64,000 nt of DNA. It comes from a virus. A program made the position numbers and the translations under genes. The stretch spans positions 44,671-108,670 of IMG/VR virus record IMGVR_UViG_3300023184_004051; one strand, 5' to 3'. Below the pieces are notes generated by a model that saw only the letters and a program-made list of their open reading frames with translations, had not been told where the DNA came from and made no database searches. Position 1 is the stretch's first letter. Every line of letters begins with the position of its first letter. This document shows positions 1,387 to 58,276 of the stretch, piece after piece.

Positions 1387-1424
1387 GAAGTCGTATTGCG
1401 CGCATAGCGTGATACGATTTCACT

Positions 1425-1682
1425 ATGTCGCTAAAGGATGCCGAGCAACGACTAGAGCAGGTATTCACCTGCAAGTTTGTTGACTTCCACGAGGGATTAG
1501 ACAAAGACGACCAAACGACTTTTGCTCGTTGGGTTGGTGAAATCAAGCCCGCAGGTTGGATTTCCCGTGTCGTGACTGCCGACGGAAAACACCTCAACGA
1601 AAAGACCCTCAAACGGCACTTAGATGGGCAATGCAAATGCCCCGAGAACACCATCCACAAGGGGGTTTATCGTGGCGCTTGA
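1425..1682 (+). CDS. Hypothetical protein (C...H..G.C.C, possible Zn binding)
   Basis: ORF preceded by the same gtgatacgatttc sequence as the 1084 gene. Confidence 0.6.
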   Translation: MSLKDAEQRLEQVFTCKFVDFHEGLDKDDQTTFARWVGEIKPAGWISRVVTADGKHLNEKTLKRHLDGQCKCPENTIHKGVYRGA

Positions 1683-2892
1683 CGACGCAGCAAAGCCGTT
1701 CACCAAGCACAATGTTCCAAAAGGCAACGAGCCGGGTATCAAGTGGGATGGTGAAAAGGGCTTTATTGACAGTCCGGCCCTCCCCGATGAACCCGACCAA
1801 GCCTTATGGGAAACCATCATTGCCGATTGGGGACTTTCACCTGAAAAGACGGAAATCGTTGACGGGTCAGTTCACATTCGTGCGTGGGATGCCGCTATTG
1901 GCGGTGGTGAAACACAAAGGATGCGCTACTACCGAGCGTCTATCCGCAAACGACAAGAGGATGGCTTCCTTTCTGATGAGGTGAAGCGTCTATTCGCTCA
2001 CATCCAAAACCGCAAGCCAACCAAGCGTAGTGAAAACGATGTGGACTACGGCAATCAAGCCTTACTTCTTTTGGCGAGCGATTGGCAGTTGGGCAAGGGC
2101 GAAGGTGGCGGGCCGGAAGCGGCCATTGAGCGCATCTGTTCAGCACAAGACAAGTTCATCGAAAAGGTGCGGTTCCTCCGCAAGATGGGTCGTGGGCCTT
2201 CGGTGATTTATGTCGTCGGAATGGGCGACTTGGTGGAAAACTGCGACAACCACTACGCAATGCAACGCTTCACCGTTCGTTTGGACAGGCGAGAGCAAAA
2301 AGATGCAGTCATCTTTCTCCTTGACCGCCTCATTGAGTTGTTGGTGAAAAACTTTCCTGATTTGGAAATCGTGATGGCCGCAGTTCCGGGTAATCACGGC
2401 GAGAACAGGTCTAACGGCAAAGCGTTCACCTCTTGGACTGACAATGACGATTTGGATGCGGTGGCAATGACCTACCGTGCTTTCACTAAAAACCCCGAGC
2501 GATACGGCAAAGTCTCAATGCCACAGTTTGATGGACTCATCCAAGAGGATATGACTATCACACTGAACATCTGTGGTGTAAATGTGGGTTTTGCACACGG
2601 ACATCAGTTCCGCAACGGCACAAACGCCTCGGCCAAAGCGGAGGGGTGGTGGAAAGGTCAAGTAATGGGCGAGCAACCTATTGCTGCCGCCAAACTCTTG
2701 TTCGCCGGACACCTTCACCACGCAGTCGTTTCTGAAGCCACAGGTCGCACCTTTTTCCAATGCCCTGCGATGGATGGCGGTTCAGCGTGGTTCACAAGCA
2801 CTTCGGGCGCATCATCGCCTGCTGGAATGTTGACCGTTGGCGTTGGAACGGGATACGAACGCAACGGTTGGGGTGATTACGAAATCCTATGA
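1672..2892 (+). CDS. Calcineurin-like metallophosphoesterase (Mre11/SbcD-like)
   Basis: Motifs SDWQLGK, GDLVEN, PGNHGE, HGHQ, GHLHH. Confidence 0.8.
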   Translation: MALDDAAKPFTKHNVPKGNEPGIKWDGEKGFIDSPALPDEPDQALWETIIADWGLSPEKTEIVDGSVHIRAWDAAIGGGETQRMRYYRASIRKRQEDGFLSDEVKRLFAHIQNRKPTKRSENDVDYGNQALLLLASDWQLGKGEGGGPEAAIERICSAQDKFIEKVRFLRKMGRGPSVIYVVGMGDLVENCDNHYAMQRFTVRLDRREQKDAVIFLLDRLIELLVKNFPDLEIVMAAVPGNHGENRSNGKAFTSWTDNDDLDAVAMTYRAFTKNPERYGKVSMPQFDGLIQEDMTITLNICGVNVGFAHGHQFRNGTNASAKAEGWWKGQVMGEQPIAAAKLLFAGHLHHAVVSEATGRTFFQCPAMDGGSAWFTSTSGASSPAGMLTVGVGTGYERNGWGDYEIL

Positions 2893-3263
2893 CAAACAAG
2901 TTCTACATTGCCGGCCCGATGAGGGGTCTGCCGCAAAACAACAGCGCAGCATTTGAGGAAGCCACCAAACGGCTCCGAGAGGCTGGCTACGAGGTTTTTT
3001 CACCATCTGAGGGAGATGACGCACCCGCAACGGATGAAACCTTTACAAACGCAATGAAGGCCCTCCTGCCGGAACTACTGAAATGTGATGCGGTAGCCGT
3101 GTTGCCGGGTTGGGGTCGAAGCGAAGGTGCGAAGTTGGAAGTGTTGGTTGCAGTCAGCACCGGCAAGCCCATCTACTCCTATCATCAGCACCGCCCTCAG
3201 TATTTGGAACTGATGCCCACCGTCAAAATCATTACCCGTGCCGAGGCATTGGCGAATGGCTAA
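2889..3263 (+). CDS. DUF4406 / nucleoside 2-deoxyribosyltransferase-like protein
   Basis: FYIAGPMRG, F.P, CDAVAVLPGW..SEGAKLE. Confidence 0.8.
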   Translation: MTNKFYIAGPMRGLPQNNSAAFEEATKRLREAGYEVFSPSEGDDAPATDETFTNAMKALLPELLKCDAVAVLPGWGRSEGAKLEVLVAVSTGKPIYSYHQHRPQYLELMPTVKIITRAEALANG

Positions 3264-3711
3264 TCACCATTGGACTGACGGAACTGACACAGGCTGGGAT
3301 ATTTCACCTTGGGAACTACTCCCCGGCGTTCGCACAGGCGAGGAACTGTCTCGTGGTGAAAGAGCCGCAGACATTGTTCGCAACAAGATGGGTTCGTGGG
3401 GCTTTGTTTTCACCTTCACGACCTTTATGTTCATCTGGGCAAGTGTCAATGTTGTGGTGTTCGCCAATCGGGGCTGGGACCCGTATCCGTTCATCCTGCT
3501 GAACCTGATGCTTTCGGCTCTCGCCGGACTCCAAGGGTCAATCCTTCTCATCGCAGCGAAGCGGGCTGATGCCGTTGCCGCAGAACAAGCCCTCTCGCAC
3601 CTCACGATTTCCAAAGCAAGTAGCGAAATCATCAAGGAACTGCGTAGTGAAATCCGAGCGGTCAAGACATTGGCCGAGCAAATCCAACACCACATCAAGG
3701 AGGGCAAATGA
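3256..3711 (+). CDS. DUF1003-family membrane protein
   Basis: GERAAD.V...MGSWGF and WDPYPFILLNLMLS motifs; two hydrophobic segments. Confidence 0.8.
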   Translation: MANHHWTDGTDTGWDISPWELLPGVRTGEELSRGERAADIVRNKMGSWGFVFTFTTFMFIWASVNVVVFANRGWDPYPFILLNLMLSALAGLQGSILLIAAKRADAVAAEQALSHLTISKASSEIIKELRSEIRAVKTLAEQIQHHIKEGK

Positions 3712-8014: not shown

Positions 8015-8015
8015 A

Positions 8016-9275: not shown

Positions 9276-9287
9276 GAGAGTAGTGAA

Positions 9288-9674
9288 ATGGATATCACGG
9301 TTCAGGTAGACACGAGCAACCTCGTGCTTCACCAAAAGTCACAACAAATCAACGAGATGATTGCTCGCAGCGTAAGCGATGTCATCGAGAAGGTCTTTGC
9401 TGAAAGCCAAATCCTTGTTCCCGTCAACACGGGTGCATTGAAAGCCTCCGGTCAAGTGGTGAAAGAGTCGCCTGAGGAAAATGGGGCGCTCAGTTCCTCC
9501 TACATCACTTATGGTGATGCAACCGTTGATTACGCTGTGTCAGTTCACGAGGACTTGTCTATGCCTCACGCTGCCCCAACGCAAGCCAAGTACCTAGAAA
9601 CCCCGTTAGTGAAAAATGTGCCGCTTTTGGAAAGTCTCATCCGAGCGCGGCTGAAAGTGATTTTGTATTCGTGA
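9288..9674 (+). CDS. HK97 gp10-like neck/tail completion protein
   Basis: VPVNTGALKASG...YAVSVHE...QAKYLE.P. Confidence 0.75.
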   Translation: MDITVQVDTSNLVLHQKSQQINEMIARSVSDVIEKVFAESQILVPVNTGALKASGQVVKESPEENGALSSSYITYGDATVDYAVSVHEDLSMPHAAPTQAKYLETPLVKNVPLLESLIRARLKVILYS

Positions 9675-16623: not shown

Positions 16624-19600
16624 TTGAGCGAGATGAAAACTTACTACGCCAATCCAAACTACGCCGAGGCTGGCAACTCCGATAACTGGGTAGTAGTAGG
16701 GGCGCAAAGTGCTGATGTTTCCGTCAATGACTTGACACAGTTGGCCGTTGGCAACATTTCAGCACCAACAAGTGCCTCAACTACCGGGTATTACTTCGCC
16801 CAAGTAGAGGATTTGACCCGCCTGACAAAGGGATGGTCATACCTCACCAAGACCAATCTCGGCCCTCGCAACCAAGCGAATGACACCTTTCAAGGCAACC
16901 GCCCGCAAGCGCCTGTCTCGGAACCCTATGTCTATGTTGCTGAAATCAACGGCTTCCTCAATGGCGACACTCTGGCAGTTTTGGAAGGTCAGCAAGAGAA
17001 CCAACCTCCATTTTCCAATGCCGCCACTTCATCTGACTATGGGACAAGTCAGTGGTCAGTCGTTCGCAACGCCGGTCTTATCCCGCTCGTCAGCACCGAC
17101 CCCGGAAACTCCACCACATCGTTCTTGCAACCCGAGAACTCGTCATCCCTCGCTTCACGCCTCATCGCCTACAACAACATTGACTATGGCGACACGAACT
17201 ACGGAAACACCTACACGGATGACGGTGGCAACACTCTGCCTGTCCCTGCAACCAAGAACTACGGCTCAAAGTTCACCCCAACTCCCGACAACTTGGGAAA
17301 TGGAACAACGCAGAACTGGTATCTCGTCGCTTCAGGTGATGACACGGCTCAGGCAAACCTTCTCACGATGCTGCCGGATTTCACTACCGATGGCGAGCAA
17401 GTTGTCAGCGTGCAGGTTGGGCAGACCGCAACAACCGTCACTTTGAGTGCGGCAAACTCCGCTTTCACCGTCGGTCAGACCTTGACGATTGTGACGAACA
17501 GCACAGGGGTGAGCAGTTCGCTGCCTTACCTGTCTACAAGCGCCCCGATGGGTTGGTTTGCTGGAAAGATTACAAGCATTGCCGGTGCGACCCTCTACAC
17601 CGACCTCAACGACACCACTTCCAATACCGGAACGCTTGACCCCCTGCCCGGAAGCCTCAATAATGCTTTGACATTCACCGGCACAGTTTTGGGAACGAAC
17701 ACGATTACGATTTCAGCAGTTGGCTCAACATCCAACTATGGCATCGCCGCCGGTCACACCCTGACTCTGACCAACACGATTTCCACTATCAGTTCAACGG
17801 CCTCAACCTTCACGGTCACCACGAGCGCCACGCACTACATCGTTGCAGGTCAACAGGTCACCATCGCTGGCGTGACAGGGGCTACTTACACTCCTTACAA
17901 CGGGACTTGGACTGTCGCTACGGTTGGGGCAACCACTTTCACCGTGACAAGCACCATCAACCCCGGAACGGTTAGCCCTGCGAGTGCAACGGCTTCGCAA
18001 CAGGCGTATGTCGGCTCAATCATCGGAAACGGCGTGGGTGCTGTAATCACGCTAGATGCCTATGGTGGGCCAATGGGACTCAATACCGCCATCACAAACG
18101 GCTCTGGCATCTCGTTTTCAGCAAACTACCTTGACAACAATGTGCGAGCATACGCAGCGACAATCACCAACTACACGCTCCGTGTCAATGACGACGGCAA
18201 CAAGTTGGACTGCCAATACTCAACTGCGCCTTATTACGCCCAAAACTGCAAACTCTCCCTCTCATCGGCACTTTCCACTACCGGCGCTACGACGCAGGTT
18301 GTTCTCCGCAACAACGATGTGTATGACTACACCATCTATGGGGCGACGAACGGTGGAGTAGTTGTTGCAGTCATCTCAGGCGACAACTACCAAGAAATCA
18401 CCGTCACGAGCGACACAACCATCTTGGGTTTTGGAACAGCAACCGCCACGGCTACAAGTTTCACGCCAAACTTCGCTTACCCCGCTCGCATCACCTCGCT
18501 TTACGATGTCACTCAGACAAAAAGTGGTGATAATGACCGATACGGCAAAGTTCTTGTCCTCCCTGTCATCCCGCAGATTTACCGCAACGCCCCAATAGCG
18601 CAGTTCAAGAGTATGACCGCTTTGAGTGGTGGAATAACCGAAACGATTTCCGGCTCTACCTATTACTACGGGACAGTTGGAAGCACTTACTTCTCGTCTG
18701 ACCCCTACACGGTTTCAGTAGATGATGTTTCCAATATCAACGTTGGCGACACGCTTACTTTCCGCAACGACTACAACCCGTGGTTCAGCAACTACACGAC
18801 CAAGCCTCCGACATCCTCTGAATGGTCAACCTATGGCGACAATGTGCCTTGGAGTTGGACACTCACCGATAGCGGCGCTTCAGGTTTCACCTGCACGAGC
18901 GGGGCGACCTTCATCATCCTTCCTGATGCAAATGGCTACTCCCTCCCCCTAGTGAAAGGGCAAGCAGCGTTCGGTGCGCCAACCTATGTTCCAAATGGGG
19001 CAAAAGTCACGGGTTGGAACGCCACGCAGATTTTCTTTGACCAAAACACCACAGCAACCGTCGCCACCCCTGCCCAAAACATCCGCTTCTACCCCGGAAC
19101 TTCAGGCTTCAACTATTGGAAGGTTTACTCGGTCAACACGGCGGATAACACCTTCGTCATCTACGGTTCGTCGGGGGCATACGAGCAGATTTCAGCATCT
19201 TACGGAACCAACGGCGACAGTCAGAACTACATCTTTGACTACAGTAATCACCTCTACGCAGGGAATACTGTAGACATTTCCAGCACGATTGGCGTTGGAG
19301 CGGGCGTTGTCGGACTGTCAAGTGCGGTAAATGTTGGGCCAGAAGTCAACCTTTCTTGGCACACAACCAACACGGTGATTGCCTCATACGCAGAGGGTGG
19401 GCGCTACATCGGTAGTGAAAGCCTTGGCGACCAAGAAGTAGCAATCCCTTACCGCCTCGGTTCGCTGATTGGCTCAACCCTTGCAGTTGACATCATCGCT
19501 CAGACAAGCACCGCCATCGTGGTGAACGCACTTCCAAATACGGCTGCATCGGGTATCTACAATCCGTCATACACCCTTACGGACTACAACCAATATGGAA

Positions 19601-19968
19601 ACTCGCCAGCGCAACTTGCCAACCTCGGCCAAAACGCAGGCTTCGCCATTTTGTCAACCGAAAGCGCATATTCCACCAACTACTCAGTGGGCAATGTGTT
19701 CCCTCTTGTCGTGGGTGGCGGGGATACGCAGGAAGTCGTGTTGGTTCAGCGTGGCACATCCAAAGTCCCTAACCCCATTGACGGTGGCACGAGCCTCAAC
19801 TCTCCGATGGTTTGGAACTTGGCTTCGGGGCAGTCTTTTCAGTATGACCACGATGCGGGCGACCCAGTTTGCCTTCCAAACTTCATTTACAAATCAGCAG
19901 GTACGATTAGTCACGCCGCCAATGCGCCAGTAGTCGGCCTACCAGATACGGGAACTGTTTATGGCTAA
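16624..19968 (+). CDS. Large minor tail protein
   Basis: 1114 aa after the tape measure; contains a TVTT...H....GQ.VTIAGV....YNG.WTV module. Confidence 0.65.
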   Translation: MSEMKTYYANPNYAEAGNSDNWVVVGAQSADVSVNDLTQLAVGNISAPTSASTTGYYFAQVEDLTRLTKGWSYLTKTNLGPRNQANDTFQGNRPQAPVSEPYVYVAEINGFLNGDTLAVLEGQQENQPPFSNAATSSDYGTSQWSVVRNAGLIPLVSTDPGNSTTSFLQPENSSSLASRLIAYNNIDYGDTNYGNTYTDDGGNTLPVPATKNYGSKFTPTPDNLGNGTTQNWYLVASGDDTAQANLLTMLPDFTTDGEQVVSVQVGQTATTVTLSAANSAFTVGQTLTIVTNSTGVSSSLPYLSTSAPMGWFAGKITSIAGATLYTDLNDTTSNTGTLDPLPGSLNNALTFTGTVLGTNTITISAVGSTSNYGIAAGHTLTLTNTISTISSTASTFTVTTSATHYIVAGQQVTIAGVTGATYTPYNGTWTVATVGATTFTVTSTINPGTVSPASATASQQAYVGSIIGNGVGAVITLDAYGGPMGLNTAITNGSGISFSANYLDNNVRAYAATITNYTLRVNDDGNKLDCQYSTAPYYAQNCKLSLSSALSTTGATTQVVLRNNDVYDYTIYGATNGGVVVAVISGDNYQEITVTSDTTILGFGTATATATSFTPNFAYPARITSLYDVTQTKSGDNDRYGKVLVLPVIPQIYRNAPIAQFKSMTALSGGITETISGSTYYYGTVGSTYFSSDPYTVSVDDVSNINVGDTLTFRNDYNPWFSNYTTKPPTSSEWSTYGDNVPWSWTLTDSGASGFTCTSGATFIILPDANGYSLPLVKGQAAFGAPTYVPNGAKVTGWNATQIFFDQNTTATVATPAQNIRFYPGTSGFNYWKVYSVNTADNTFVIYGSSGAYEQISASYGTNGDSQNYIFDYSNHLYAGNTVDISSTIGVGAGVVGLSSAVNVGPEVNLSWHTTNTVIASYAEGGRYIGSESLGDQEVAIPYRLGSLIGSTLAVDIIAQTSTAIVVNALPNTAASGIYNPSYTLTDYNQYGNSPAQLANLGQNAGFAILSTESAYSTNYSVGNVFPLVVGGGDTQEVVLVQRGTSKVPNPIDGGTSLNSPMVWNLASGQSFQYDHDAGDPVCLPNFIYKSAGTISHAANAPVVGLPDTGTVYG

Positions 19969-22900
19969 TACCTCATACACCGCAGCGCCATCTCTGGTTG
20001 CCACGAACACCACCAACAAACCGACTATCACGACGAATACAAAACTCAACATCACCTCGCCGTGGCTCGCCTCAGGAAACGCCGGTCAACCGGACATTTC
20101 CACCACTTTGTCTGCAACTGCTTTGGAAGGCGCTTCGACGCTCTCGATTGTCTCAGGTGAAAACTTCCCCACCTCCTATCCGAGCGTGTTCCAAAGTGGC
20201 ATCACCTACCTCCCACCGAGCATTGGCCGCTTGGCAGGCTCAGTCATTTCCGGCACGAATGTCATCCCGTTCGTTGCTGATAATGAACTGCCGACCCAAG
20301 CCCCTACCTTCGTGCGCTTAGGTAGTGAAATCCTCCAAGTGTTGAGTTTTGGCAATGTGACGGTTGGAGCCACAAACTACAGTTGCCTCAACACGGCAAC
20401 AAACACGGCTTCAGCACACCCGGACTTCACGCCCATCCACCTGAACTCGCTGCCGACCAACACGCAATACACGAGCATCACAGTTCCGCATTTTTACCTC
20501 GCAGATGTGAGTGCAACCGGAACGATGTCGGGAACGAGCAATACCATCACCACCGCCGCTTTGCCAGCAACCCTCGGCAAGGGGCAAACGATTACGACGG
20601 CAACAGGCGGAACAACCTACCTGCCTTCGGGAACGACGGTTGTGGACTATTCCACTAACTCGGGTCTCATCACGCTTTCCAATGCGTTCAGCACAGCCGC
20701 AGCAGGCATCACTTTCGTCAATGCGGCGAACTTTACAGCAAATATGAACCCTGTGATGTTGTCATCTATCGCCTCAGTGACAAGCCCTGCCGGTGGCACA
20801 CACACCATAATGTCCAGCCTTCCAAACATCGGTTCGGTGATGACCGGAACGGGTATGGCATCACCTACTTACATTGCCGCCATTGACACGACAAACTTGC
20901 GCCTTCAGGTTTCAGCAAACCCGACCTCGTATGGAACGACTGTTGCGCTCACTTCGACGCTCACTTTCACCTGTAGCACCGTTTCTGGTAGCAAAATCCT
21001 GACCATCAAGAACATCACCGTCAACGGAACTTCATATCCAAAAGTCGGCTCGACCAACCCAACTTGGAACGGGAGGTCGCTCGCTTCCTACATCAAGGTT
21101 GGCGCTCCTATCACCACTACGACTGGCGGTGGCATCGCTGCAAAGTATGTGACTGCAATCAACCCAAGCACGGGTCAGGTCACGATTTCAGCAAACGCAA
21201 CCGCAACTGTGGCTACGGCAACAGTCACCTCGGCAATCACGATGACTGCCAACACAGGGCGTTCGGTCAATGTCGTCAACAACGCAAGTAGTGAAATCAA
21301 CAAAATCATCGCTGCGGGAAGTTCATTCTCGGACACCGCAGGTGTGACTACCTACATCGCTGCTGGCACGACAATCACCAAAACCCTCGCCGTCAGTTCT
21401 ACCCAAACTGAACTCACGATGTCTGCTCCATCTGGCACAACGGGTGCGTGGGCAGGTCGTGTGGCTCAACTTTCCACCACTTTCACGGGGACATCAAGTT
21501 TTTCCAACCAAATCACGGGAGTCGTCAACGCCTCCACCCTGTATCAAGTCGGCTCGGCGGTCTATGGGAACCAATACATCCCTGATAACACCACCATTAC
21601 GGGTATTTCGGGAACGACGCTTACTCTCTCCAACGCTTTGACCAACGGTTTCACCACTTACACGGGGCAAACCTTCAAGGTGAGTAGCAGCCTGAGTATT
21701 GGAAAAACCTATTCAAGCCTGCCGGTGACACCACTTCCTTGTTCAATCCCCGTCGGCACGACGCTCTACCTGTCTTTTGGAAACTATGTCCAAAACTTGA
21801 CGGTCACCTCACTCGGAAGTGCGGGCGACACAACCCTGTCGGTCACGGCGTTCCAACCTCGCTACAACTTTTCCACTACCTCTTACTCCTATGGCGTTGC
21901 CGTCGGCTTGACGGGTGGGTATGGCTATGGAGCAAGCATCACCACCGGCCTGAACGCCGACCTCTACACAGGTCAAGTCATCTTGCTTCAGGCGAACAAC
22001 AGCACGGATTTGACCACTCCTGTCACAGTCAAGTCGTACACTCGGATGACTTCACGAACCATTGAGACAATGCCCTTCGTGTCTCCCTACGCCTATGACG
22101 GACAAAGTGTGGGCTTTTCCACCACAGCGAACTTCACGGGCGGCAGCGACCAAGTGACGAGCGTTGGGTCAACGGGCGGATTGACGATTGGGCAACAGGT
22201 TTTCAGCACTTGCCTGCCGACGACGGCTCAATGCTTCATCACGGCCATCTCTGGCACGACACTCACCATCAGCACTCCGGCCACTTCGGGTGGAACGGGT
22301 GCGACCCTTTCGGTCTACTCAAACACCTTCCTTGCATCTATCCCATTGACTTTGGATAAGGGCAAAGTGCAAGAGGTTGTCTACCCGATTTCACTACCGA
22401 CGAGCAATGGTTCGTCGTGGGACATTAGCCTCGCTAGCCAGACAACTTATCAGCACAACAACAACGCATCGCTCGTCTACTACCACTGGCCTACGCCAAT
22501 CAAGACTGGTGATGTCACTTACCGACCCGACCTTGGCAAGTTGTTGATGTGGGATGGCTTCGGTTGGAGAACAGCACGAGTCAACTCCGTGAGCGGCGTG
22601 TATTCCATTCTCGGTGCAGTTGGCGGTGGTGAAATCTCAGACATCACGCTCTACGACCCGACGACCAACAAGGAAACAGCAGCCGACACATACAAAGGCT
22701 CTCCTTCAACCAAGTATTCCACCTATCACGGTGGCAAGCGGGCGGTTGACCCCAACGGCAATGAGTGGACAGGGGCAACGATGTCCCGTATTCAGTTTCA
22801 CCTCAAAGTCAAGGTTCCTCAGGGCAAGTCGGTGGGCTTCCGCAGTCTGGCGCTCCAAAGCGAATACAAGGCAGCGCCGTCGGTCAGCAGCGTCCACTTC

Positions 22901-25900
22901 ACTCCGGGCGACAACTTTGAGATTTCACCTTTCTACACGGGCAACTCCGTATTTTGGTACTACTCAGATTTGGAAAAGGAACCCCAGACCGGATGGCAGG
23001 TGAACATCTATGACGACTACACCTACAACCGACCTGACTTTGACCCTGACAATGCGGCGATTGTTCCGTTTTGGAAAGCGTCGGGTGCTGATGACACGAC
23101 AGATGTAGAAATCACGGGCGCTCACGGGTGGGTCAATGGTGAACGCTATTGGGCGTTTGTCCGTGTTGCCAAGCAGTTTCACCAAAAGCAATGGTGGGGG
23201 GATTGGAACTCTCAGCGTTTCATCGTTTCGGTTGACCAACCTGCAAGACCGATTATGTCCATCTACACGGATAGTGAAAAATCTGTCAACAAGTTGGCAA
23301 TCCAAACCACCGACAACCTTCTCGGCTTCAACAACGGCACATTCGTTCAGGGCTTGGGTCAATGGTCACGGTCAGTCAACGACACGGTTTCCAGCACCGT
23401 CACTGACCTCAATGACGGCATCCCATTGGGTGCGACATTGGCGGCAGGCAACCACATCACCTCTTTGCCTGTGGGTGCAACCGGCTTCGTCATCGTGCAG
23501 GGGGCGTTGAGCGGTACGGGAACTGGTACCTTCAAGGTTTCAGCAAGCACCGCAGGTGGGCAAGACGCACTCGGCTTCCCGCAATCAGGGCGTTTTTGGG
23601 TCACCATCGGAACCGAGAAAATCCTCGTTGAAAACAAGAACGACGGCAACAAGACCGGCGACACTTTCACTATCATCACTCGTGGCTACAAAGGCACAAC
23701 TGCCGCATCTCACGCATTGAACAGCGCAGTCTATTTTGGACTTCAGAACGATGTCTATGTTGGCTCGGTAGCGACAATCAAGTTCACGCAGCACAACACG
23801 GTTTCGTGGAACACCAAAAGCACCGCAACGGTTCGGAACTACAACGGCTACGGCGGGTCTTGGGAGAACCGAACAAGAACACCACTTTCCATCCTTTCGC
23901 AGACGCAGGGCGCTCACAAACATTCCACTGACCGTGTGATGGTCTACGACGGCGCTGGCTTGATTTCGCACGCTGATGTCGGCTCAACAGTCGTGTTGAG
24001 TTTCCGTCACTGGCACGATGCGAACAAAAAGAATGTCATTGGTCGAGATGCTCAGGGCAACCGCACGGTGAAAACAGTCAGTGTCCCTGACAAAGTTCTC
24101 ACGGGTGGCGATGTCCGTGAGGTGGAAATGAAAATCAAGGCTGTCCAAGACATCTGGGATGACACCGCACACAAAGCCATCAAAATCAACATCGGTGCGA
24201 CGGTCAACCAGATTGCAGGTGGCCCCGGCGACCCAACCAACCACATCACCATCTACCCGTGGCTCAACAAGTCGCAACAGTTTGACTTTTCCACTAACCA
24301 AGTCTGCATCTCACGGAACTACATCCCTGCTGGGCAGAAACTCACGATTTCGTCAGTCGGGTTCCGCGACCCCAATGCACCGCACAAGAATATTCCCGCC
24401 GCTTCTATGTCGGTTTACCTCACCAAAGACTGGCACCCCACCGATAAGACGCTGCACATCCGGGCAATCACCAAAGCACCCGGCTGCCAAGTCGGAAATG
24501 GCCAGTGTTTCATCATTCCAAAAAACTCGACAATCAGTTGGCAACCGCCTACGATTTTCACCTCACGCAAGGTCATCCACTTTGACGGCTCCTACCGTGA
24601 CAAGAAGGGTTTTGAGGCTCAGAAACTTCAGCCCGGAGATGGACTTTATGTTCTAAAGGGTCGCTACTTCCCCGGCAAGGCGAACACCGCAACAGGAACC
24701 CACCAAGTCACCACCGTTGTCCCTCACACAAAGAGGGTTGATGTTGACAGCACCCAAGCCTTCGTCGTGGACTTCCTCGTTCAGCCGACCATCTCAACGG
24801 GTGGCGTTCTTGGAACTCTGACGGGAAGCAGTTTCACTATCGCCACAGGCGCTAGCACCCAATACAACGCCATCGCATTTTCAGCGACACCCGGCTCGAT
24901 TGCAGGTGCTTTCGCATCCACTCCGGGTCTTTCACCAAACTCAACGGTTCGTGCGGTCACGACGGTTGTTGGCGGAACCTATGCGGGCTACTACGCAGTC
25001 ACCTTCAACAACAGTTCGCTAACGCAAACCACTGTCAAAGTCCAATACACCAATGTTTCGGGAAATGCGGTTTCATCACCTACCTACACGGGCATCAACG
25101 CCACTTTCTCGCCCTCTGACATCCTAAAGATTTCAGCAGGCGCACAAAGTTTGCCGGTTCGACCCGCCATTCCAAACTTCGCTTACCAGAAGTATCTCCC
25201 CATCAAAATCACCTACCCACCCATCTATGGCGACAATGTTCTCGCAGTAGACCCGACTACGGGTTCGGGTGGCTCGGGCGACATTAGTGAAATCTCCCTC
25301 TACCCCGCAGGCTGGTCGTTCACCGACCAAAACCCTGTGAGAGTCAATGCCGGACAGACTTATGGACTTTCCGCTTACAGCAAGTTGGTTGTGGGCAATG
25401 GAACACCAACCTTTGCGCCACACATTGACTGGTACGACGAAGTGGGAAGCCTGCTGAAATCCTCGTATGGAACCGAGAGCCTGAACAACCCCGGAACCAT
25501 CAACTCGGTCACCATCGGTGTCCAAATGAACACAAGCGCAAGCCTGTGGGGTCAGGGTTGGCATCCGGTGGCAATGGTCGCAAAAGCACCAACTGTCACT
25601 CTTGGAACGGCTACTTTCACCTCAACCTCAACCTCAACGGGCAACTTCGTTATTGGGGCGCAGGCAGGTTTTTCAGCAGTCAACCTGAAGGCGGGTGCGT
25701 CGCTCGCCGGTAGTAATGGAACCACTTACACCTTGACAACGGATGTGACCGCTACAAGTTCTGGCTTCACACTTCCGGTTCGTTTTACTGCTGGAATAAC
25801 TGTGCCAAGTAGCACCGTCTTGACCATCAAATCCACTCGTGCCGTGCCGGTCTTGCGCTGGACAAATGTGAACAGCACCGATGCGTATGGCGTGTCGGGC

Positions 25901-27088: not shown

Positions 27089-27090
27089 CC

Positions 27091-30432: not shown

Positions 30433-31032
30433 TTACTCAGCGACCTTGACGGTCACGGAGATGCCACCTTCGGTGTGCTGAAGCCCGTCAATCGGGGTTC
30501 CGGTTGCGGGGTCGAGAACGGTGTCGCCCGCAAAGTCAGCAACCTTCTTGATGCTGGCGATGTCGGCTTCACGCTTCACACGCACCCACTCAGAGTGACC
30601 GTTGGCATCAGCCCAAGCGAGGAACGCTTCAGCGTCAGTCACGGCGACCTTAGATGGGGTCACACGGCTCGTGGCAACACCATCGGGGAAGTCAAGCGAC
30701 TTGCGACCATCCTGCTCGTTCTGGCGAACAGCAATCAGGTATTCGGAGAGAGCGAGGTCAAAGAAATCAACCTCTCGTCCGTGAGTGACCGTGTTGCTCT
30801 CAACCCAATGGTTGATGCGGTCAATCTCAATCTTGGCTTGACGCTTCACCTCGTCAATCCGACGCTGAGCCTGAGCCAAACGACGCATTGCCCAAAGAGC
30901 CTCGTCGTCGTTGGTGATGACAAAGGTGCGCTCAGTGAGTTCACCATTTTCATCGGTGTGGTTCTCGGCAAAGCCCTCAGGCTCACCAAGAGTGGACAGG
31001 AATGTGGACAAATCCACGATGTCGTTGCTCAT
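30433..31032 (-). CDS. Mu Gam-like host-nuclease inhibitor
   Basis: F.I.ND..A.WAMRRL, KSL.FP.G....R. Confidence 0.7.
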   Translation of the reverse strand: MSNDIVDLSTFLSTLGEPEGFAENHTDENGELTERTFVITNDDEALWAMRRLAQAQRRIDEVKRQAKIEIDRINHWVESNTVTHGREVDFFDLALSEYLIAVRQNEQDGRKSLDFPDGVATSRVTPSKVAVTDAEAFLAWADANGHSEWVRVKREADIASIKKVADFAGDTVLDPATGTPIDGLQHTEGGISVTVKVAE

Positions 31033-36310: not shown

Positions 36311-36793
36311 ATGACCGTCATCGCTGGTTGGCACGACAAAGAACGAGCGTGGATTGGCGGCGACAGTGGTGCGTTTGACGAGGACAGCGTAAGCCTCACC
36401 GAGACAAAGGTTTGGAAAGCCGACGGCTTCCTTCTTGGCGCTTGTGGGGGGTTCCGCCTTGCTGAAATCGCTTACGATAGCGGTATTGGAGAGCCATATC
36501 GCCTCCGTGACCACTTGGAGATGTGGTGGAAAGACCTCGGCTCAGGGGAGAATGACACGACCTTCCTGTGTCTCAACACACTCGGGATTTGGATTATTGG
36601 CTCGGATTTCAGCGTCATTCGTTGCCGTGAGAACTACGCTGCCATCGGGGGCGGGGGATTGTCTGCGATGTCAGCACTTCGGGCGCTACAAGATGTGTCT
36701 ATGGGGGGCAAAGACCGCATCACCACCTCCCTCAAAACTTCCGCTTACCACACGAGCAAGGTTCGCACCCCGTTCCGGGTGATTTCACTATGA
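36311..36793 (+). CDS. Ntn-hydrolase (HslV/proteasome beta-like) protein
   Basis: N-terminal Thr (MTVIAG), GGDS, KVW, AIG.G. Confidence 0.7.
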   Translation: MTVIAGWHDKERAWIGGDSGAFDEDSVSLTETKVWKADGFLLGACGGFRLAEIAYDSGIGEPYRLRDHLEMWWKDLGSGENDTTFLCLNTLGIWIIGSDFSVIRCRENYAAIGGGGLSAMSALRALQDVSMGGKDRITTSLKTSAYHTSKVRTPFRVISL

Positions 36794-37170
36794 GTAGGAA
36801 AATCCAAAAGTCTTACACGCTTCGCTACGATGTCCGACCCGACTTCACGCTCAACAAGGAACGAACGGTGCATCACCACGCTCGTGCCAAAGTGGTCAAG
36901 GAGTGGCGACAGGCGTTTGCTGATGCCGCCCAAGCCGAGATGATACCGAGATTGGAACAAATCACGGTTGAAGCGCAGCCCTATGTGCTGAACGCTCGCT
37001 ATCGCCAAGATGTCGGTGCGTGTTTCCCTGTGGTGAAAGCGGCGATTGACGGACTTGTGGATGCAGGCGTTCTCGTTGACGACCACGCAGGGATTGTGGT
37101 GAAACTGACGATGCTCGCTCCCATTTTTGGCAGCGACGCTTTGGAAATCACGATTGCTAGCGTAGGATAG
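36790..37170 (+). CDS. RusA-like Holliday junction resolvase
   Basis: D.......KAAIDGLVDAGVL.DD. Confidence 0.7.
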   Translation: MSRKIQKSYTLRYDVRPDFTLNKERTVHHHARAKVVKEWRQAFADAAQAEMIPRLEQITVEAQPYVLNARYRQDVGACFPVVKAAIDGLVDAGVLVDDHAGIVVKLTMLAPIFGSDALEITIASVG

Positions 37171-40697: not shown

Positions 40698-40955
40698 ATG
40701 GAACCCGTCACCCCGCTTCCAAAGCGCCAAGAAGTTGACACAAACTTTTCACCAGAGGTCGCCTCGCTGCTGCAACACATCAAGGATGTCTGCAAGCAGA
40801 TGCGTGACCACGAACGAGCGGTGATTGACTTGGGCGTTGAGCGTCGCCAGACCGTCACTCGACTCCGTGACCACGGCATCACTTGGCGCAAGATTGCTGA
40901 ATGGGCCGGCACGACTGACCAAGCCCTTTACAAGCACCACAACCGAGACAAGTAG
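40698..40955 (+). CDS. HTH DNA-binding protein
   Basis: LR..G.TW..IA...G.T.QA; aaggag RBS. Confidence 0.65.
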   Translation: MEPVTPLPKRQEVDTNFSPEVASLLQHIKDVCKQMRDHERAVIDLGVERRQTVTRLRDHGITWRKIAEWAGTTDQALYKHHNRDK

Positions 40956-40987: not shown

Positions 40988-43456
40988 GTGCGTATGCCGA
41001 CACCTGACCCAACTTTAGTTAGAGCCGTGCAGACGCTTGCGGGCGTTTGCGATGGAGCCGCCACCCAAGATGGTGTTGGCTTCAATGGGCCTGACAGCAA
41101 GTTTGGGAAGTCTCTTGGTGAAGCCCCTGTAGAGGTTTGGACTGATGCCCTCGCCAGAGATGCGTGGGAACTCATCGCCAAGTATCGGGGGCAACTCAAA
41201 AGGGTTGGCATTGACTACGACAGCATCCCAGAGCCTCCTAAGGCGCACGGTGTCAAGGGCGTAAGAGCCGTAGATGTCCGCTCAGGCAAGGTTTTGGTGT
41301 TCCTGCCCTATGGGGACTCAGCCTATCCAAAACAGGCGTTATCAGCAACTTGGAACCGTGACCTGCGGGGTTGGCAGGTAGCCGTATCCAAGTATGGCTC
41401 AGTCTTGTCGTGGGCTGAAAGAAACGACATCCCCGTGACCGACAGGGCGAAGGCAATCCTGTCATCAGCACCTCAGCCAGACAAGCCAGACTACGGTGGC
41501 ACAGCCCTTTTGGAGTTTGGTGAAATCGTGTTGAAGTTTGACTACAACCCCAAACTCGTAGATGCCGTTCGTGCCATTCCCGGTAGGCATTGGAACGGTC
41601 ACGAGAAGGTTTGGATTATCCCTGCCAAGTGCGTGAGCCTCGTTCGTCAGTTGGCGGAGGACTATCACCTCTTTCTAACCGAGGATGTCAAGCGCCTACC
41701 TGACCACGAAGTGACCACAGCACCGACTGTCTCCGTCAAAGGGAAGTCGTTTGCCATCTCGTTCACCTACGATGCCGACCTACTTTCCAGCGTTCGCCAA
41801 ATGCCCGGTTCTACTTGGTCACCTAAGGACAGAGTTTGGCTTGTTCCGATTGAGAGCGTTGAGGAAGTTCAGAAGTTTATCGCCCAATCAAAGGCAAAAA
41901 CTTCACCAGAAGTCGCCAAGTTGGTCGCTGAGGCAAGTGTCGTTCAAGCGGTTATTGACGCATCAGCAGCGCACGATGCCGAAATCCAAATCAAGGGATT
42001 TGGCTCAGAGAAGTTCCAACTATTCCCATTCCAAAGAGCCGGTGTCGCCTACGCTATGCGTCAAATGGGCTTCACCTGCGACGATGATGGAGTGTGGATA
42101 CAAACCGAAATAAACTCCGGTGGTGTTCTTATTGGCGACGAAATGGGGCTTGGAAAAACCTCGCAAGGTCTTGGTGTTCTGAAGGCTACGAACTCGTTTC
42201 CTGCGGTGATTGTCTGCCCTGCCAGCCTCAAACTCAACTGGAAGCGTGAAGCCGAACAATGGATACCGGGCGTTCAGGTGAAGGTTCTTTCAGGCACTAA
42301 AGGCAACTTGCCTGATGCCGACATTTACATCATAAACTACGATATTCTCACGCATTGGACAGATAAGTTCGTGAGTATCAAGGGCTTGGTTTTGGATGAA
42401 AGCCACTACATCAAGAACGGTTCAGCACAGCGTTCCAAAGCCTGTATTCGTATGGCGGATAAGGTTTCCGAAGGTGGCGTTAGAGTCTGTTTGTCAGGAA
42501 CACCAATCGTCAATCAACCTTTAGAGATTATGACGCAACTCCGTGTCATCAACCGTTTGGATGAGTTTGGCGGAGCCACTTCATTCCGAGGAAACTACGG
42601 GCGGGCATCAGCAAAGAGCCTCGCAGCACTCAACCGGAAACTCCGTAGCACTTGCTATGTCCGTAGGCGTAAGGCTGATGTTTTGACCGAACTGCCTCCG
42701 AAGCGTTGGGCGCACTTGGTCGTAGAAGGCGACCCTGTGGTGATGAAGGAATACAAGAAAGCCGAAGCCGACATCGTGAAGTATCTGTCGCAGTTGGCGA
42801 TGCAACTCGCTTTGGAAGCCGGTGCTGATAACGAGGAAGCCCGACGAGAGGCTTGGCAAAAGGCGCTACGAGCCAGAGCCGCCGAGAACCTTGTCGCCAT
42901 CACCACCTTGAAGCAACTCGCCGCCAAAGCCAAAATGAAGGTCGCTAAGAGTTGGATAGATGACTTCCTCGCCAACGACAAGAAGTTGGTGGTGTTCGGA
43001 TGGCATCGTGACATCGTGGATATGGTTGCTGAAAACTTCAGTAATGGCGTGAAAATCCAAGGCGGATTGACCGCCGAGAAGCGTCAGGAAGCCGTTGACC
43101 TTTTCCAAAACTCAGACGAGCAGAAGGTGATTGCCTGCAACATCAAGGCAGCCGGAGTGGGTCTAACCCTGACCGCAGCCAGCGATGTGCTGTTCGTTGA
43201 GCAGGGATGGACACCGAGCGATATGGAGCAGGGTGCTGACCGTTGCCACCGCATCGGACAGACCGACAGCGTGACCGCTTGGCTGATGCTGACCGCCGAA
43301 ACGATTGACGAGGATATCGCCACGCTGATTGACCACAAGAGAAGCATCGTGGACAGGGCGATTGACGGAAGCGATGACGACGATGACGAGGAAACCTCCA
43401 TCATTGGTGATTTGCTTGTCGGCCTTGCCGAGCGTGGGATGCAGGAAGCGTCGTAG
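40988..43456 (+). CDS. SNF2-family helicase with N-terminal HARP-like repeats
   Basis: DEMGLGKT, DESH, SGTP, DR.HRIGQ; repeated F.Y...V..VR..PG..W units. Confidence 0.9.
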   Translation: MRMPTPDPTLVRAVQTLAGVCDGAATQDGVGFNGPDSKFGKSLGEAPVEVWTDALARDAWELIAKYRGQLKRVGIDYDSIPEPPKAHGVKGVRAVDVRSGKVLVFLPYGDSAYPKQALSATWNRDLRGWQVAVSKYGSVLSWAERNDIPVTDRAKAILSSAPQPDKPDYGGTALLEFGEIVLKFDYNPKLVDAVRAIPGRHWNGHEKVWIIPAKCVSLVRQLAEDYHLFLTEDVKRLPDHEVTTAPTVSVKGKSFAISFTYDADLLSSVRQMPGSTWSPKDRVWLVPIESVEEVQKFIAQSKAKTSPEVAKLVAEASVVQAVIDASAAHDAEIQIKGFGSEKFQLFPFQRAGVAYAMRQMGFTCDDDGVWIQTEINSGGVLIGDEMGLGKTSQGLGVLKATNSFPAVIVCPASLKLNWKREAEQWIPGVQVKVLSGTKGNLPDADIYIINYDILTHWTDKFVSIKGLVLDESHYIKNGSAQRSKACIRMADKVSEGGVRVCLSGTPIVNQPLEIMTQLRVINRLDEFGGATSFRGNYGRASAKSLAALNRKLRSTCYVRRRKADVLTELPPKRWAHLVVEGDPVVMKEYKKAEADIVKYLSQLAMQLALEAGADNEEARREAWQKALRARAAENLVAITTLKQLAAKAKMKVAKSWIDDFLANDKKLVVFGWHRDIVDMVAENFSNGVKIQGGLTAEKRQEAVDLFQNSDEQKVIACNIKAAGVGLTLTAASDVLFVEQGWTPSDMEQGADRCHRIGQTDSVTAWLMLTAETIDEDIATLIDHKRSIVDRAIDGSDDDDDEETSIIGDLLVGLAERGMQEAS

Positions 43457-43849: not shown

Positions 43850-43899
43850 AACAAAAGTCTATCCTGCGTTAGTGAAATCCCTGAAGTAGAGTGGCATCT

Positions 43900-45102
43900 A
43901 TGAATATCAACGTGAGAGCCGAACTTGTTGCGATTGACAGCATCAAGGCGCACCCGCAAAACCCCCGACTTGGTGATGTCGCCGCTATTGCCGAGAGTTT
44001 GGAAGTCAACGGTCAGTATTCACCAGTCGTGGTTTGGAACGACACGATTATTGCCGGAACCCACACTTGGAAGGCCGCAAAGAGTCTCGGCTGGACAGAA
44101 ATCGCCGTCACCTACTTTGAGGGCAGCGAGGATGAGGCGCTTCGTGTGCTGATAACCGACAACCGCACGAGTGACATTGCCGTTTACAACAACGAACTGC
44201 TCCTTGACCTGCTGAAATCCCTGCCGGATTTGGAAGGAACGGGCTTTGACACCGAGTATTTAGACGAACTTGACGGTCTACACAACGACACCTCCGGTGG
44301 CATTTCCAAACCTCTCCTTGACGACGAGCCAACCGACGACCCAACACCACCTGTTCCAATCGTTCTTGGTGACTTTCGGGGCTACTTGGACTACGGACTG
44401 CACGACATCTGGCTCTCATCTATCCAAGATGCGGTTGGTGAAAAGAAAGCCAAGATTACTAAGGAAATCCGCAATCGCTTGGACATCCCCAACGACCCAA
44501 AGCCGCCAAAGACGGAAAAGGTCAAGACTTCCAAAACTGCCGACCAAAAGATGACGATGGTGGAAACTACTCTCGTTCCCATCAAAGAACTGAAGCGGTA
44601 TCCAAACAACCCTCGCGAGGGGGACATCGGGGCGATTAGTGAAAGCCTGCGGGTTCTTGGGCAATACCGACCCGTCGTGGTGAATAAGCGCAACAACCAA
44701 ATCCTGAAGGGCAACCACACGGCTGCCGCTGCATCAGCACTTGGCTGGACTGAAGTTGCCGTCGTATGGGTGGATGTGGATGACGAAGCGGCGGCAAAAA
44801 TCGTGCTTGCCGACAACCGAACAGCAGACAAGGCGACCTACGACAACGACCTGCTTCTCTCTGCGATTTCACTACTGGACACTTTGGAAGGTTCCGGGTT
44901 TGACAGTGAGGATGTAGCCGACATCGCACAGGGCAAGAACAGCACCCCCGTCATTGCAAAGGTCAAGTTCCAAATCGGGGATTACTCGTTCTCGACTACA
45001 CAGGGCGCTTACGACGCTTGGGCTGCTGAAACCAATATTCCTGATGAGGCGCTTCACCAACTTGGCTTGCCCCTAACCGCACTTCTAAGGGAAGCAGACT
45101 GA
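43900..45102 (+). CDS. Protein with two tandem ParB/Srx N-terminal domains
   Basis: Two copies of P.NPR.GD..AI.ESL...GQY.P.VV...G.HT..AA..LGW...DNRT.D; probable leaderless ATG at 43900. Confidence 0.85.
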   Translation: MNINVRAELVAIDSIKAHPQNPRLGDVAAIAESLEVNGQYSPVVVWNDTIIAGTHTWKAAKSLGWTEIAVTYFEGSEDEALRVLITDNRTSDIAVYNNELLLDLLKSLPDLEGTGFDTEYLDELDGLHNDTSGGISKPLLDDEPTDDPTPPVPIVLGDFRGYLDYGLHDIWLSSIQDAVGEKKAKITKEIRNRLDIPNDPKPPKTEKVKTSKTADQKMTMVETTLVPIKELKRYPNNPREGDIGAISESLRVLGQYRPVVVNKRNNQILKGNHTAAAASALGWTEVAVVWVDVDDEAAAKIVLADNRTADKATYDNDLLLSAISLLDTLEGSGFDSEDVADIAQGKNSTPVIAKVKFQIGDYSFSTTQGAYDAWAAETNIPDEALHQLGLPLTALLREAD

Positions 45103-55716: not shown

Positions 55717-55718
55717 GC

Positions 55719-56661: not shown

Positions 56662-56722
56662 GCAACTACCATACACCACTCTAGTTTGGAAGTCAAGTCA
56701 TTTGGAAAGAATATTTCCAAAC

Positions 56723-56836
56723 TCAACAACCTTCCTCTCGCATCTGGCTCAACAGCATCTCATCTGCGAGTGCTTCCAAGTCCTCGTCGGACATACCCTC
56801 GAAGTTGCTCGCTACCATCTCATCCCAAGTCATCAT
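56723..56836 (-). CDS. 37-aa acidic microprotein
   Basis: MMTWDEMVASNFEGMSDEDLEALADEMLLSQMREEGC; gaggtg RBS; TTGACT(56895-900)-17-TAGAGT promoter. Confidence 0.55.
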   Translation of the reverse strand: MMTWDEMVASNFEGMSDEDLEALADEMLLSQMREEGC

Positions 56837-56965
56837 CAGTCACCTCGTTCTCGTTGTATCTACTACACCACACTCTATCAAGAGGGTGTCACATAGTCAA
56901 GTCATTTTGGAAATATTATTTGGCGGCCCCTTGCTCGACACCACCCCTCCTTGTATTTTGGAAGT

Positions 56966-57145
56966 ATGAGCGCATACAACGGATTAGACACGACCACAGG
57001 AAACATCACCCCACTCTGGCTCTGCGATGAGGCAGGCTGCAATCTCGGATGTGAGGTTGGAACACCAGAGGCCGAAGGCTGGCTTGCCACCGAGGAAGCA
57101 CACTTCTGTCCTACCCACGTCATTTCTCGCTTCGGCAGCAAGTAG
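56966..57145 (+). CDS. Small Cys/His protein
   Basis: CD..GC...GW......HFCP.H. Confidence 0.45.
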   Translation: MSAYNGLDTTTGNITPLWLCDEAGCNLGCEVGTPEAEGWLATEEAHFCPTHVISRFGSK

Positions 57146-57310
57146 CAGCGGCCCAGCAGCGAGTTTTGGAAAACTGGGCCATACCCCCCTATTTTTTGTC
57201 CGAGCAGGGCTACGATAGGGGGATGAAGCATTACCTCCCATACCTCTACTCCTTCTTGGCAGGCTTTGGAACTGCGATGACCGTCGCTTTCTTTCGCCGT
57301 AGGTAGTGAA

Positions 57311-58276
57311 ATGAACCAAATCATCCAGCGGCTTTTGGAAGCCGGCCCCGAACAGAAGCGGCAAATCTTGTCGAGTCTGTCAAAAGACGAGTTAGCAGTC
57401 GTCTACCGTGAGTTGGAAGTCATCGAAAGCAGCCCAACACGGCGTTGGTATTGCCCCCGTGAGGTCTGCAACGGCGAGCCACACGCAGGATTTCACTGGT
57501 GCGACCACCCGATTGACGGGAACCACACGCCATACTGCAAGCACGCTCGAACACCACAGCGCCCGCCGGAGGAAACGGCAGACAAGCCGTGGCTTACTTG
57601 GTTCTTTAGCGGCGGTCGAGGAACGGGAAAGACACGAGCCGGAGCCGAGTGGGTTTTGGATTTGGTATGGAACCAAGGCTACAAGCGCATCGCACTTGTC
57701 GGTCGAACACCAGCCGATGTCCGAGATGTGATGATTTACGGGGATAGTGGAATAATGTCCGTGAGCGACCCCCATCCCCGCCCCACACACGAGCCGACCA
57801 AGCGCAGGCTCATCTGGCCGAATGGGGCGCAAGCCTTCACCTATTCCGCCGCCGCTCCGAGTCAGTTGCGTGGCCCTCAGCACGATGCGGCGTGGTGCGA
57901 TGAGTTGGCCGCTTGGACTGACGCTCCAAAGGGCGATGTTTTGGACACCTCTTGGAACAACCTGATGCTCGGCTTGCGTCTGGGGACAAATCCAAAGGCG
58001 CTCGTCACCACCACTCCAAAACGAGTCAAGTTGGTTCGACAAGTTATGGAGCGTCGAACAACCGTGATTACACAAGGAACGACCTACGAGAACCTTTCCA
58101 ATATGGCCGCTTCCTTCCGTGAGAACGTGCTTGCGGCCTACGAAGGCACACGCATTGGCGAACAGGAGTTGATGGGAACCCTCCTGACAGATGTTGACGG
58201 TGCAATGTGGACTTTGGAAATGCTCGAAAATCGAGCCGAACTTGTCGCAAGCGTGCGAGCGGGGCTAGATGATTAG
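57311..58276 (+). CDS. terL: Terminase large subunit, ATPase half
   Basis: GGRGTGKT, LRGPQ...AWCDE, TTTPK, QEL.G. Confidence 0.85.
   Translation: MNQIIQRLLEAGPEQKRQILSSLSKDELAVVYRELEVIESSPTRRWYCPREVCNGEPHAGFHWCDHPIDGNHTPYCKHARTPQRPPEETADKPWLTWFFSGGRGTGKTRAGAEWVLDLVWNQGYKRIALVGRTPADVRDVMIYGDSGIMSVSDPHPRPTHEPTKRRLIWPNGAQAFTYSAAAPSQLRGPQHDAAWCDELAAWTDAPKGDVLDTSWNNLMLGLRLGTNPKALVTTTPKRVKLVRQVMERRTTVITQGTTYENLSNMAASFRENVLAAYEGTRIGEQELMGTLLTDVDGAMWTLEMLENRAELVASVRAGLDD

Follow-up and report, generated by a model that had tools for sequence, protein, structure and literature searches.

The window analysed here is a 64,000-nt stretch of viral DNA, bases 44,671-108,670 of the 108,670-bp contig IMGVR_UViG_3300023184_004051 from IMG/VR (genome label G000), and it carries a family of short asymmetric words of the form T-(A/G)-(G/C)-T-G-(A/G)-A-A (TRSTGRAA, with R for A or G and S for G or C), of which TAGTGAAA is the commonest. 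The contig is an uncultured tailed phage, and the TRSTGRAA class amounts to about 370 copies per genome, which puts one about every 300 bp along nearly all of the chromosome. We find that selection acts at the DNA level on these words. The reading that we favour, with a probability of roughly one in three (about 0.35), is that they are dispersed docking or nucleation sites for a sequence-specific, probably phage-encoded DNA-binding protein.

There are 60 exact copies of TAGTGAAA in the window, where 100 dinucleotide-preserving shuffles give 1.21 +/- 1.25 (maximum 5). The initial annotation had counted at least 39 copies on the plus strand and about 20 of the complement; we count 39 and 21, and all of the coordinates that it quoted are in our list. 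The whole contig holds 100 copies (66 plus, 34 minus), making TAGTGAAA the commonest octamer of the genome. Sibling words are abundant as well: TGCTGAAA (27 plus and 28 minus in the window, 103 genome-wide on both strands), TGGTGAAA (30 and 20; 77), TTTTGGAA (24 and 19; 82), TGGTGGAA (26 and 6; 46) and TAGTGGAA (7 and 11; 22). The family as a whole has 289 sites in the window, 232 of them TRSTGRAA words (TAGTGAAA 60, TGCTGAAA 55, TGGTGAAA 50, TGGTGGAA 32, TAGTGGAA 18, TGCTGGAA 9, TACTGAAA 8) and 57 of them TTTTGGAA or TATTGGAA; the genome-wide total is 477 (296 plus, 181 minus). TRSTGRAA words reach a density of 3.4 per kb, with observed/expected ratios of 20-80. The following window sites serve as examples in the text:

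598-60079, unstranded: extent of the family across the window (289 sites).
1418-1425, minus strand: a non-coding site, where TTTCACTA reads on the plus strand.
2028-2035, plus strand: a coding TAGTGAAA, within the exonuclease open reading frame (ORF) 1624-2892.
9281-9288, plus strand: a TAGTGAAA whose final A is the A of the ATG of the ORF 9288-9674.
29555-29568, unstranded: TTCCACTAGTGGAA, two TAGTGGAA back to back, the sole inverted pair at that spacing.
57304-57311, plus strand: the last TAGTGAAA of the genome, overlapping the ATG of the ORF 57311-58276 (weak match to a terminase large subunit).
60080-64000, unstranded: motif-free, higher-GC contig end with an amidoligase cluster on the minus strand.

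The palindrome TTCCACTAGTGGAA had been noted at 29555 from the sequence, and it is there. The impression that nothing follows position 57311 is correct for TAGTGAAA and TTTCACTA and wrong for the family, eight other members of which lie further on, up to 60079, so that only the last 3.9 kb are empty. The consensus first suggested, TNNTGRAA, is too loose: most of the remaining T-N-N-T-G-N-A-A words are close to or under expectation genome-wide, enrichment before TGAAA is limited to NN = AG, GC and GG (weakly AC), and TTTTGGAA behaves as a different motif, as described below. At the edges of TAGTGAAA itself, TAGTGAA is followed by A in 100 of 100 cases and AGTGAAA is preceded by T in 100 of 110.

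We considered whether the words might be a by-product of codon usage, codon pairs, repeated protein motifs, a restriction purge, or an RNA or translational signal. Three observations would fit such an origin, namely that the commonest placement is the sense frame xxT-(AGT/GCT/GGT)-GAA-A, that enrichment in the sister genome G003 is on the sense strand only, and that about 61 restriction-type words are avoided. Synonymous-codon shuffles, either global with a ban on 94 avoided words or confined within genes, keep proteins, codon usage and forbidden words and nevertheless remove the octamers. Under the global forbidden-word shuffle the coding copies fall from 72 to 3.7 for TAGTGAAA, from 88 to 10.8 for TGCTGAAA and from 63 to 12.2 for TGGTGAAA, and the expectation for coding TAGTGAAA ranges over just 3.7-4.9 when the within-gene shuffles are included. 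Split by frame, the within-gene shuffle gives seen/expected values for TAGTGAAA of 10/0.4 and 36/1.4 in sense frames 1 and 2 and of 7/0.1 and 19/2.3 in antisense frames 1 and 2; enrichment is 8-70 fold in every usable frame on both strands, and antisense and non-coding copies share in it. Non-coding DNA or gene edges, about 15% of the genome, hold 28 of the 100 TAGTGAAA copies, where 'non-coding' may contain small unannotated genes, gene calls being those of a simple ORF caller throughout. T|AGTGAA|A encodes only 36 of the 136 Ser-Glu pairs, the others being scattered. There is an excess of the dipeptides AE, EI, FT and EM, and the proteins have therefore adapted to the word.

Codon usage and codon-pair bias are thus rejected, with the words vanishing in global and within-gene shuffles alike. 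The same holds for a restriction-purge by-product: the shuffles with the 94-word ban give an equally low expectation, and among 37 relatives the count of purged 4-mer palindromes shows no correlation with enrichment (rho 0.18, p 0.28). Repeated protein motifs account for some words of G003 and not for the family, whose protein contexts vary, and within minus-strand gene blocks of the sister genomes G006 and G007 the words lie antisense. Selection for words mutationally distant from forbidden sites was dismissed by reasoning alone, such an effect being far too weak for a 30-fold enrichment, and a sequencing or base-calling artefact is countered by the long intact ORFs and by conservation in independent metagenome contigs. 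The by-product reading is largely refuted for this genome, and we rank it as the least probable of the explanations weighed here. Enrichment persists under nulls that preserve codons, dinucleotides and forbidden words, and it extends to all frames, both strands and non-coding DNA; this indicates a DNA-level signal. The initial annotation's proposal of a selected DNA signal is borne out by these nulls and by the conservation of sites at synonymous positions; it had named loss of enrichment under a codon- and dinucleotide-preserving shuffle as what would refute this, and the enrichment is not lost: the shuffled sequences keep about 4 coding copies against the 72 seen.

A signal at gene starts or stops was likewise rejected, there being only a small peak of 10 motif-ATG cases. 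This overlap, ...GTGAAATG, occurs at 10 gene starts in five genomes (window 9281-9290 and 57304-57313, and eight others) as a sharp peak at offset -7. G003 (loci L091-L095) has a further set of frequent words, TACCAAGG, TATCAGGG, CGCAGGGT and GGTGCTCA, each almost always in one sense frame (Tyr-Gln-Gly, Gly-Ala-His/Gln); these are repeated peptide and no DNA signal.

Avoidance of restriction-type words extends over the whole genome, with AGCT, CATG, TTAA and CCWGG absent, one AATT, about one GANTC, two GATC and five TATA. About 61 canonical 4-6-mers stand at no more than 6% of expectation, including BsaI, BsmBI, BsmI, MboII and Bsp1286I-type sites, and the list resembles an enzyme catalogue; the purged set differs in each relative, and the portal outgroups purge none. 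Some avoided non-palindromes are not obviously known enzyme sites (ATCAAT/ATTGAT, TTCAAA/TTTGAA, GGACG/CGTCC, TCCAGA/TCTGGA and TACATA/TATGTA), and some of these are common to the sister genomes G001 and G002. TTTTGAAA is absent because TTTGAA is banned. The genome also has motif-poor islands (genome 4898-8083, 9961-12481, 15136-17083 and 86188-87697; window 60080-64000), mostly blocks of minus-strand or orphan genes, and the few remaining copies of purged 4-mers mostly fall in some of them. The islands look as if they were recently acquired and are still adapting.

The spacing of the words indicates that the TRSTGRAA variants are one functional class. Against a null that preserves the site density of each 2-kb block, and with both orientations pooled, the 477 family sites are over-dispersed: 29 pairs lie less than 40 nt apart where 69 +/- 7 are expected, and 243 pairs lie 60-199 nt apart where 184 +/- 10 are expected. 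Among TAGTGAAA, TGCTGAAA, TGGTGAAA and the xxTGGAA class there is not one pair 8-39 nt apart in any of the six class pairs (5-7 expected each, about 33 in total; P <= 0.008). The TTTTGGAA/TATTGGAA class provides the internal control, a control from other frequent 8-mers being contaminated by family extensions; it shows no exclusion from the other classes at 8-39 nt (23 pairs seen, 19 expected), and TTTGGAA-type words are therefore a second, independent over-represented motif. Thus, TRSTGRAA is a single functional class in which one site serves a neighbourhood, and the exclusion below 40 nt seems to be blind to orientation. Beyond this zone, palindromic pairing or a fixed spacing of sites was sought and none was found. 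TTTGGAA itself is found genome-wide at 97 plus-strand and 99 minus-strand positions, often as (G)TTTTGGAA(A); almost every clade member has it in 4-18 fold excess, strand-symmetrically and in all frames.

Comparison with relatives shows how the words are maintained. In the closest relatives (76-79% nucleotide identity, with synonymous sites near saturation), 55-70% of family words are found unchanged at the aligned site, where background 8-mers reach 21-25%; the words are kept 2.6-3 times better than background. Counting changes from one member to another, such as TAGTGAAA to TGCTGAAA, TGGTGAAA or TACTGAAA, 69-82% of orthologous sites still carry a family word. Conservation is flat over positions -1 to +9, and a 3-nt rhythm is confined to the flanks. 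At 65-67% identity the site positions are mostly lost and the density is kept. The sites are thus kept in the short term and turned over in the long term, as for density-dependent signals.

The preferred words differ between lineages. G001 (121 kb, with terminal repeats) favours CAGTGAAA, TGGTGGAA and TGCTGGAA; G002 prefers TAGTGAAA alone, G005 combines TGGTGAAA with CAGTGAAA, and G006 and G007 use TGCTGAAA. G004 has only weak TGCTAAAA and GGTAAAAA, and G009 and G010 have no enriched words. The outgroups, at 43-48% portal identity, show neither purge nor enrichment, and a quick portal tree requires at least 2-4 gains or losses of enrichment. These dialects follow clades, which suggests a co-evolving reader borne by the phage.

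Orientation bears on what kind of machine reads the words. The TRSTGRAA strand split in G000 is 246:135, and the usual 2:1 plus bias is locally reversed:

16624-29717, plus strand: large tail and tail-fibre genes, where the plus bias reverses together with a strongly negative GC skew.

In the minus-strand genes of G000 and G001, 17 sites are sense and 11 antisense, a bias that seems to follow the gene strand. Given the reversal over the tail-fibre genes and this apparent leaning to the gene strand, orientation in G000 looks like a matter of coding convenience. Across the sister phages strand polarity runs from about 1:1 to 10:1, with splits of 216:22 in G003, where enrichment is in sense frames only, 75:14 in G006, 47:16 in G008 and 72:31 in G007. 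In G006 and G007, blocks of opposite-strand genes still carry the words mainly on the major strand, by 12:4 (12 antisense, 4 sense).

These polar relatives keep a second explanation alive, in which the words are Chi-like sites, read on single-stranded DNA by a helicase-nuclease (of the host RecBCD/AddAB class or a phage enzyme) that they switch from degradation to recombinational repair, thereby protecting a phage that restriction enzymes cut frequently; since a break makes two ends, sites in both orientations would be required. The initial annotation had named a Chi-like site among its candidates, and we regard it as the main rival, still live if doubtful. TAGTGAAA is asymmetric, of fitting length, far above chance and the top octamer of its genome (100 copies against about 1-3 expected), which likens it to host Chi and its use by Chi-rich phages (E. 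coli LLS and P1, P. aeruginosa MD8) (PMC12315714, PMC3784561). The 'Chi' of MD8 is its most frequent octamer, with all 32 sites on one strand, and phage LLS has 20 of its 23 Chi sites in the active orientation (PMC12315714); G003, G006 and G008 are strongly polar whatever the gene direction. The turnover of positions at constant density fits as well, as does the extreme restriction pressure on the lineage. Single mismatches link the related words into a network; MD8 offers a parallel, a frequent octamer with 7 of 8 bases in common with its 'Chi' (PMC12315714).

Set against this, the polarity of G000 is just 65:35 and follows coding composition. Its sites are evenly dense and do not cluster to an end, the contig ends, which may differ from the true termini, being motif-poor. 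The density of 3.4 per kb and the observed/expected ratios of 20-80 are far above known Chi cases (0.2-0.7 per kb, observed/expected 2-3), the density by a factor of 5-15. Chi-rich phages have no recombination module (PMC12315714, PMC3784561), whereas this phage encodes a Mu Gam-like protector, a Sak4-type recombinase, an exonuclease and RusA, most of them in the following module:

30433-31032 (minus strand), 31467-32384, 32517-33338, 36790-37170 and 40988-43456: recombination/replication module with, in all, a Mu Gam-like protein, a Sak4-type AAA_24 protein, a DnaD/O-like initiator with an N-terminal helix-turn-helix (HTH), RusA and an SNF2 helicase with a HARP-like motif.
30433-31032, minus strand: the Mu Gam-like DNA-end protection protein, of relevance to the Chi-like explanation.

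Independent directional sites would not predict the apparently orientation-blind exclusion below 40 nt, and close relatives differ in dialect or lack the words. The classical Chi words (GCTGGTGG and others) show no enrichment in our counts.

Two further rivals make use of the density and the spacing. The words could be targets of a phage DNA-modifying enzyme, their high density then giving dense modification. The genome encodes many methyltransferases, and dialects could reflect swaps of target-recognition domains; type IIG and type III enzymes typically recognise asymmetric 6-8-mers. This account leaves the 40-nt exclusion unexplained, and methyltransferase content is unlinked to dialect, G002 lacking the tandem methyltransferases and yet keeping TAGTGAAA. 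We know of no drive that would make modification targets over-represented, nothing we found supports the suggestion, which was also the initial annotation's, and we consider it quite improbable. Alternatively, the words could be priming or replication-restart sites on the lagging-strand template, polar where replication is unidirectional and on both strands where it is bidirectional; a single site would be enough for each stretch, and regular spacing would fit. In the polar relatives the motif is on the sense strand, the one that serves co-directional forks as lagging-strand template, and T7 primase sites such as TGGTC resemble the 5' half T(G/A)(G/C)TG. No polymerase or primase gene was recognised in the phage genome, however, and the DnaD/O-like initiator, SSB and SNF2/HARP helicase point to use of host DnaG, with its trinucleotide specificity. 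The exclusion, again, seems orientation-blind, and to our knowledge no phage enriches primase sites. Priming is in our judgement very improbable.

Selection in both orientations, the interchangeability of variants and the seemingly orientation-blind exclusion point instead to a protein that docks on duplex DNA. We suggest that the T-(A/G)-(G/C)-T-G-(A/G)-A-A words would be short asymmetric sites in double-stranded DNA, maintained by selection and recognised by a reader that is probably encoded by the phage and possibly delivered along with its DNA. One bound unit would serve or occupy at least 40 bp, and the genome would thereby be covered at regular intervals; plausible purposes would be to shield the phage DNA from host nucleases, or to mark and organise it. 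We infer the duplex-binding nature of the reader, its phage origin and the effect of its binding from these patterns in the sequences. Of the initial annotation's candidates, a site for a genome-coating protein is the one favoured for this genome, by the exclusion. A more specific version, in which a phage protein, possibly capsid-delivered, nucleates at about 370 evenly spaced words and coats or marks the chromosome as a genome-wide 'name-tag', shielding it from restriction and nuclease systems or distinguishing it from host DNA, with dialect and polarity co-evolving with the reader, seems to us rather unlikely.

Several considerations weigh against the docking-site reading. Neither the ParB-like protein nor two portal-linked candidates held up as reader. 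A strict 8-bp asymmetric site is long for one HTH, and about 370 roadblock-like sites inside genes must be compatible with transcription and replication. The polarity of sister phages that ignores gene direction is not predicted by a non-directional binding protein. Moreover, the exclusion test pooled orientations, and the gene calls came from a simple caller. The candidates by name or domain are:

40698-40955, plus strand: small HTH DNA-binding protein of 85 aa, adjoining the SNF2/HARP helicase and 73-83% identical in relatives; candidate reader.
43891-45102, plus strand: tandem ParB_N/sulfiredoxin-domain protein of 403 aa; candidate reader by name only, with no HTH detected.

The ParB-like protein has two ParB_N domains only, its PDB match to Noc is confined to the N-terminal domain, and with no HTH detected it was rejected as reader. 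Two candidates linked to the portal, a 90-aa ORF and a DUF6011 protein, appeared to track enrichment, and this tracking was lost in a sensitive search. Both failures are part of the case against docking.

The word core itself resembles a ParB site, which counts towards the docking reading. The P1 ParB Box A / Shigella VirB half-site, recognised by HTH domains of plasmid-type ParB proteins, has the form (A/G)(A/T)G(G)AAAT (PMC6410309). The word cores GTGAAAT, CTGAAAT and GTGGAAA(T) resemble this consensus and the chromosomal parS half-site; the counts for the compared words are AGTGAAAT 59, GCTGAAAT 59, GTGAAATC 66 and GGTGGAAA 37. The resemblance to a parS half-site that the initial annotation remarked on is therefore real, and proteins with ParB_N domains are encoded. 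The parallel goes no further: known sites are few, clustered or palindromic and bound by an HTH-bearing ParB, whereas the hundreds of words here are solitary, neither palindromic nor clustered, and carry a strict 5' T(A/G) extension, with no ParB-type HTH detected.

Among other known systems, the stoperators of Cluster A mycobacteriophages (L5 gp71 and relatives) are 13-14 bp long, number 20-36 per genome and are oriented with transcription. From the general literature, they share with the present words the character of short, asymmetric, selected sites in coding and non-coding phage DNA, whose consensus drifts between sub-lineages together with a phage-encoded reader. Dispersed asymmetric selected sites with lineage dialects are present here too; they differ in being 8 bp long, at about 370 sites, in both orientations and with a 40-nt exclusion, no repressor or temperate module was found in this genome, and no candidate for a cognate phage DNA-binding protein of the stoperator type held up. 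The DNA uptake sequences of Neisseriaceae (DUS) and the uptake signal sequences of Pasteurellaceae (USS) resemble TAGTGAAA in occurring about once per kb on both strands, within genes in preferred frames, in shaping peptides and in having dialects. They are 9-12 nt long, are found in competent bacteria and are frequently arranged as inverted pairs at terminators, whereas the present sites belong to a phage and are solitary, and in some relatives strand-polar; inverted pairs of the DUS/USS type are absent as a class, with a single inverted pair in the genome. HIP1 (GCGATCGC) and other iterated palindromes are also genome-wide octamers kept by selection, yet they are palindromes, while the words here are asymmetric and can be polar. 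As an iterated genomic word, the family can be grouped with Chi, DUS and stoperators, yet it lacks at least one tested feature of each. A literature search for these words returned nothing relevant.

The remainder of the genome is that of a plus-strand-biased phage, with 99 of 115 called genes of the whole contig on the plus strand. Structural and lysis genes include the portal, a head protease domain, the tape-measure protein, tail proteins and a GH25 endolysin, and genes of DNA metabolism comprise SSB, a DnaD/O-like initiator, a Sak4-type AAA_24 protein, RusA, the Mu Gam-like end protector, an SNF2/HARP helicase and an exonuclease. DNA methyltransferases number at least five, and there are genes of glycosyltransferase and amidoligase type; no tRNA genes lie in the window. 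At the genome start (L001:580-4284) a Methyltransf_24 protein, a family-2 glycosyltransferase with TPR repeats, an N6/N4 DNA methylase and a metallophosphoesterase are clustered, and may form a module that modifies DNA or the surface. A Dps/ferritin-like 'DNA binding protein' gene (L002:7208-7666, genome 25208-25666) lies within the head and cargo module and is 59-89% conserved in many relatives. A portal 75-91% identical to that of G000 is encoded on about 70 IMG/VR contigs. We found no closely related cultured phage, and no relative of this phage among 185,579 prokaryote genomes; a search for the host based on the endolysin gave a single distant match.

Iterated words such as Chi, the FtsK-orienting polar sequences (KOPS), DUS/USS and stoperators have each revealed a DNA-reading machine. 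This clade offers a clean case, with hundreds of sites, an exclusion zone and a recognition code that can be read from interchangeable variants, and the variation of dialect and polarity among sister genomes allows the reader to be sought by covariation. If the reader should be a host nuclease, the words would be the Chi sequence, and hence a host marker, of an uncultured freshwater lineage. If instead a phage protein coats or tags the genome, phages already extreme at avoiding restriction sites would prove to have an anti-defence or chromosome-organising device of a new kind.

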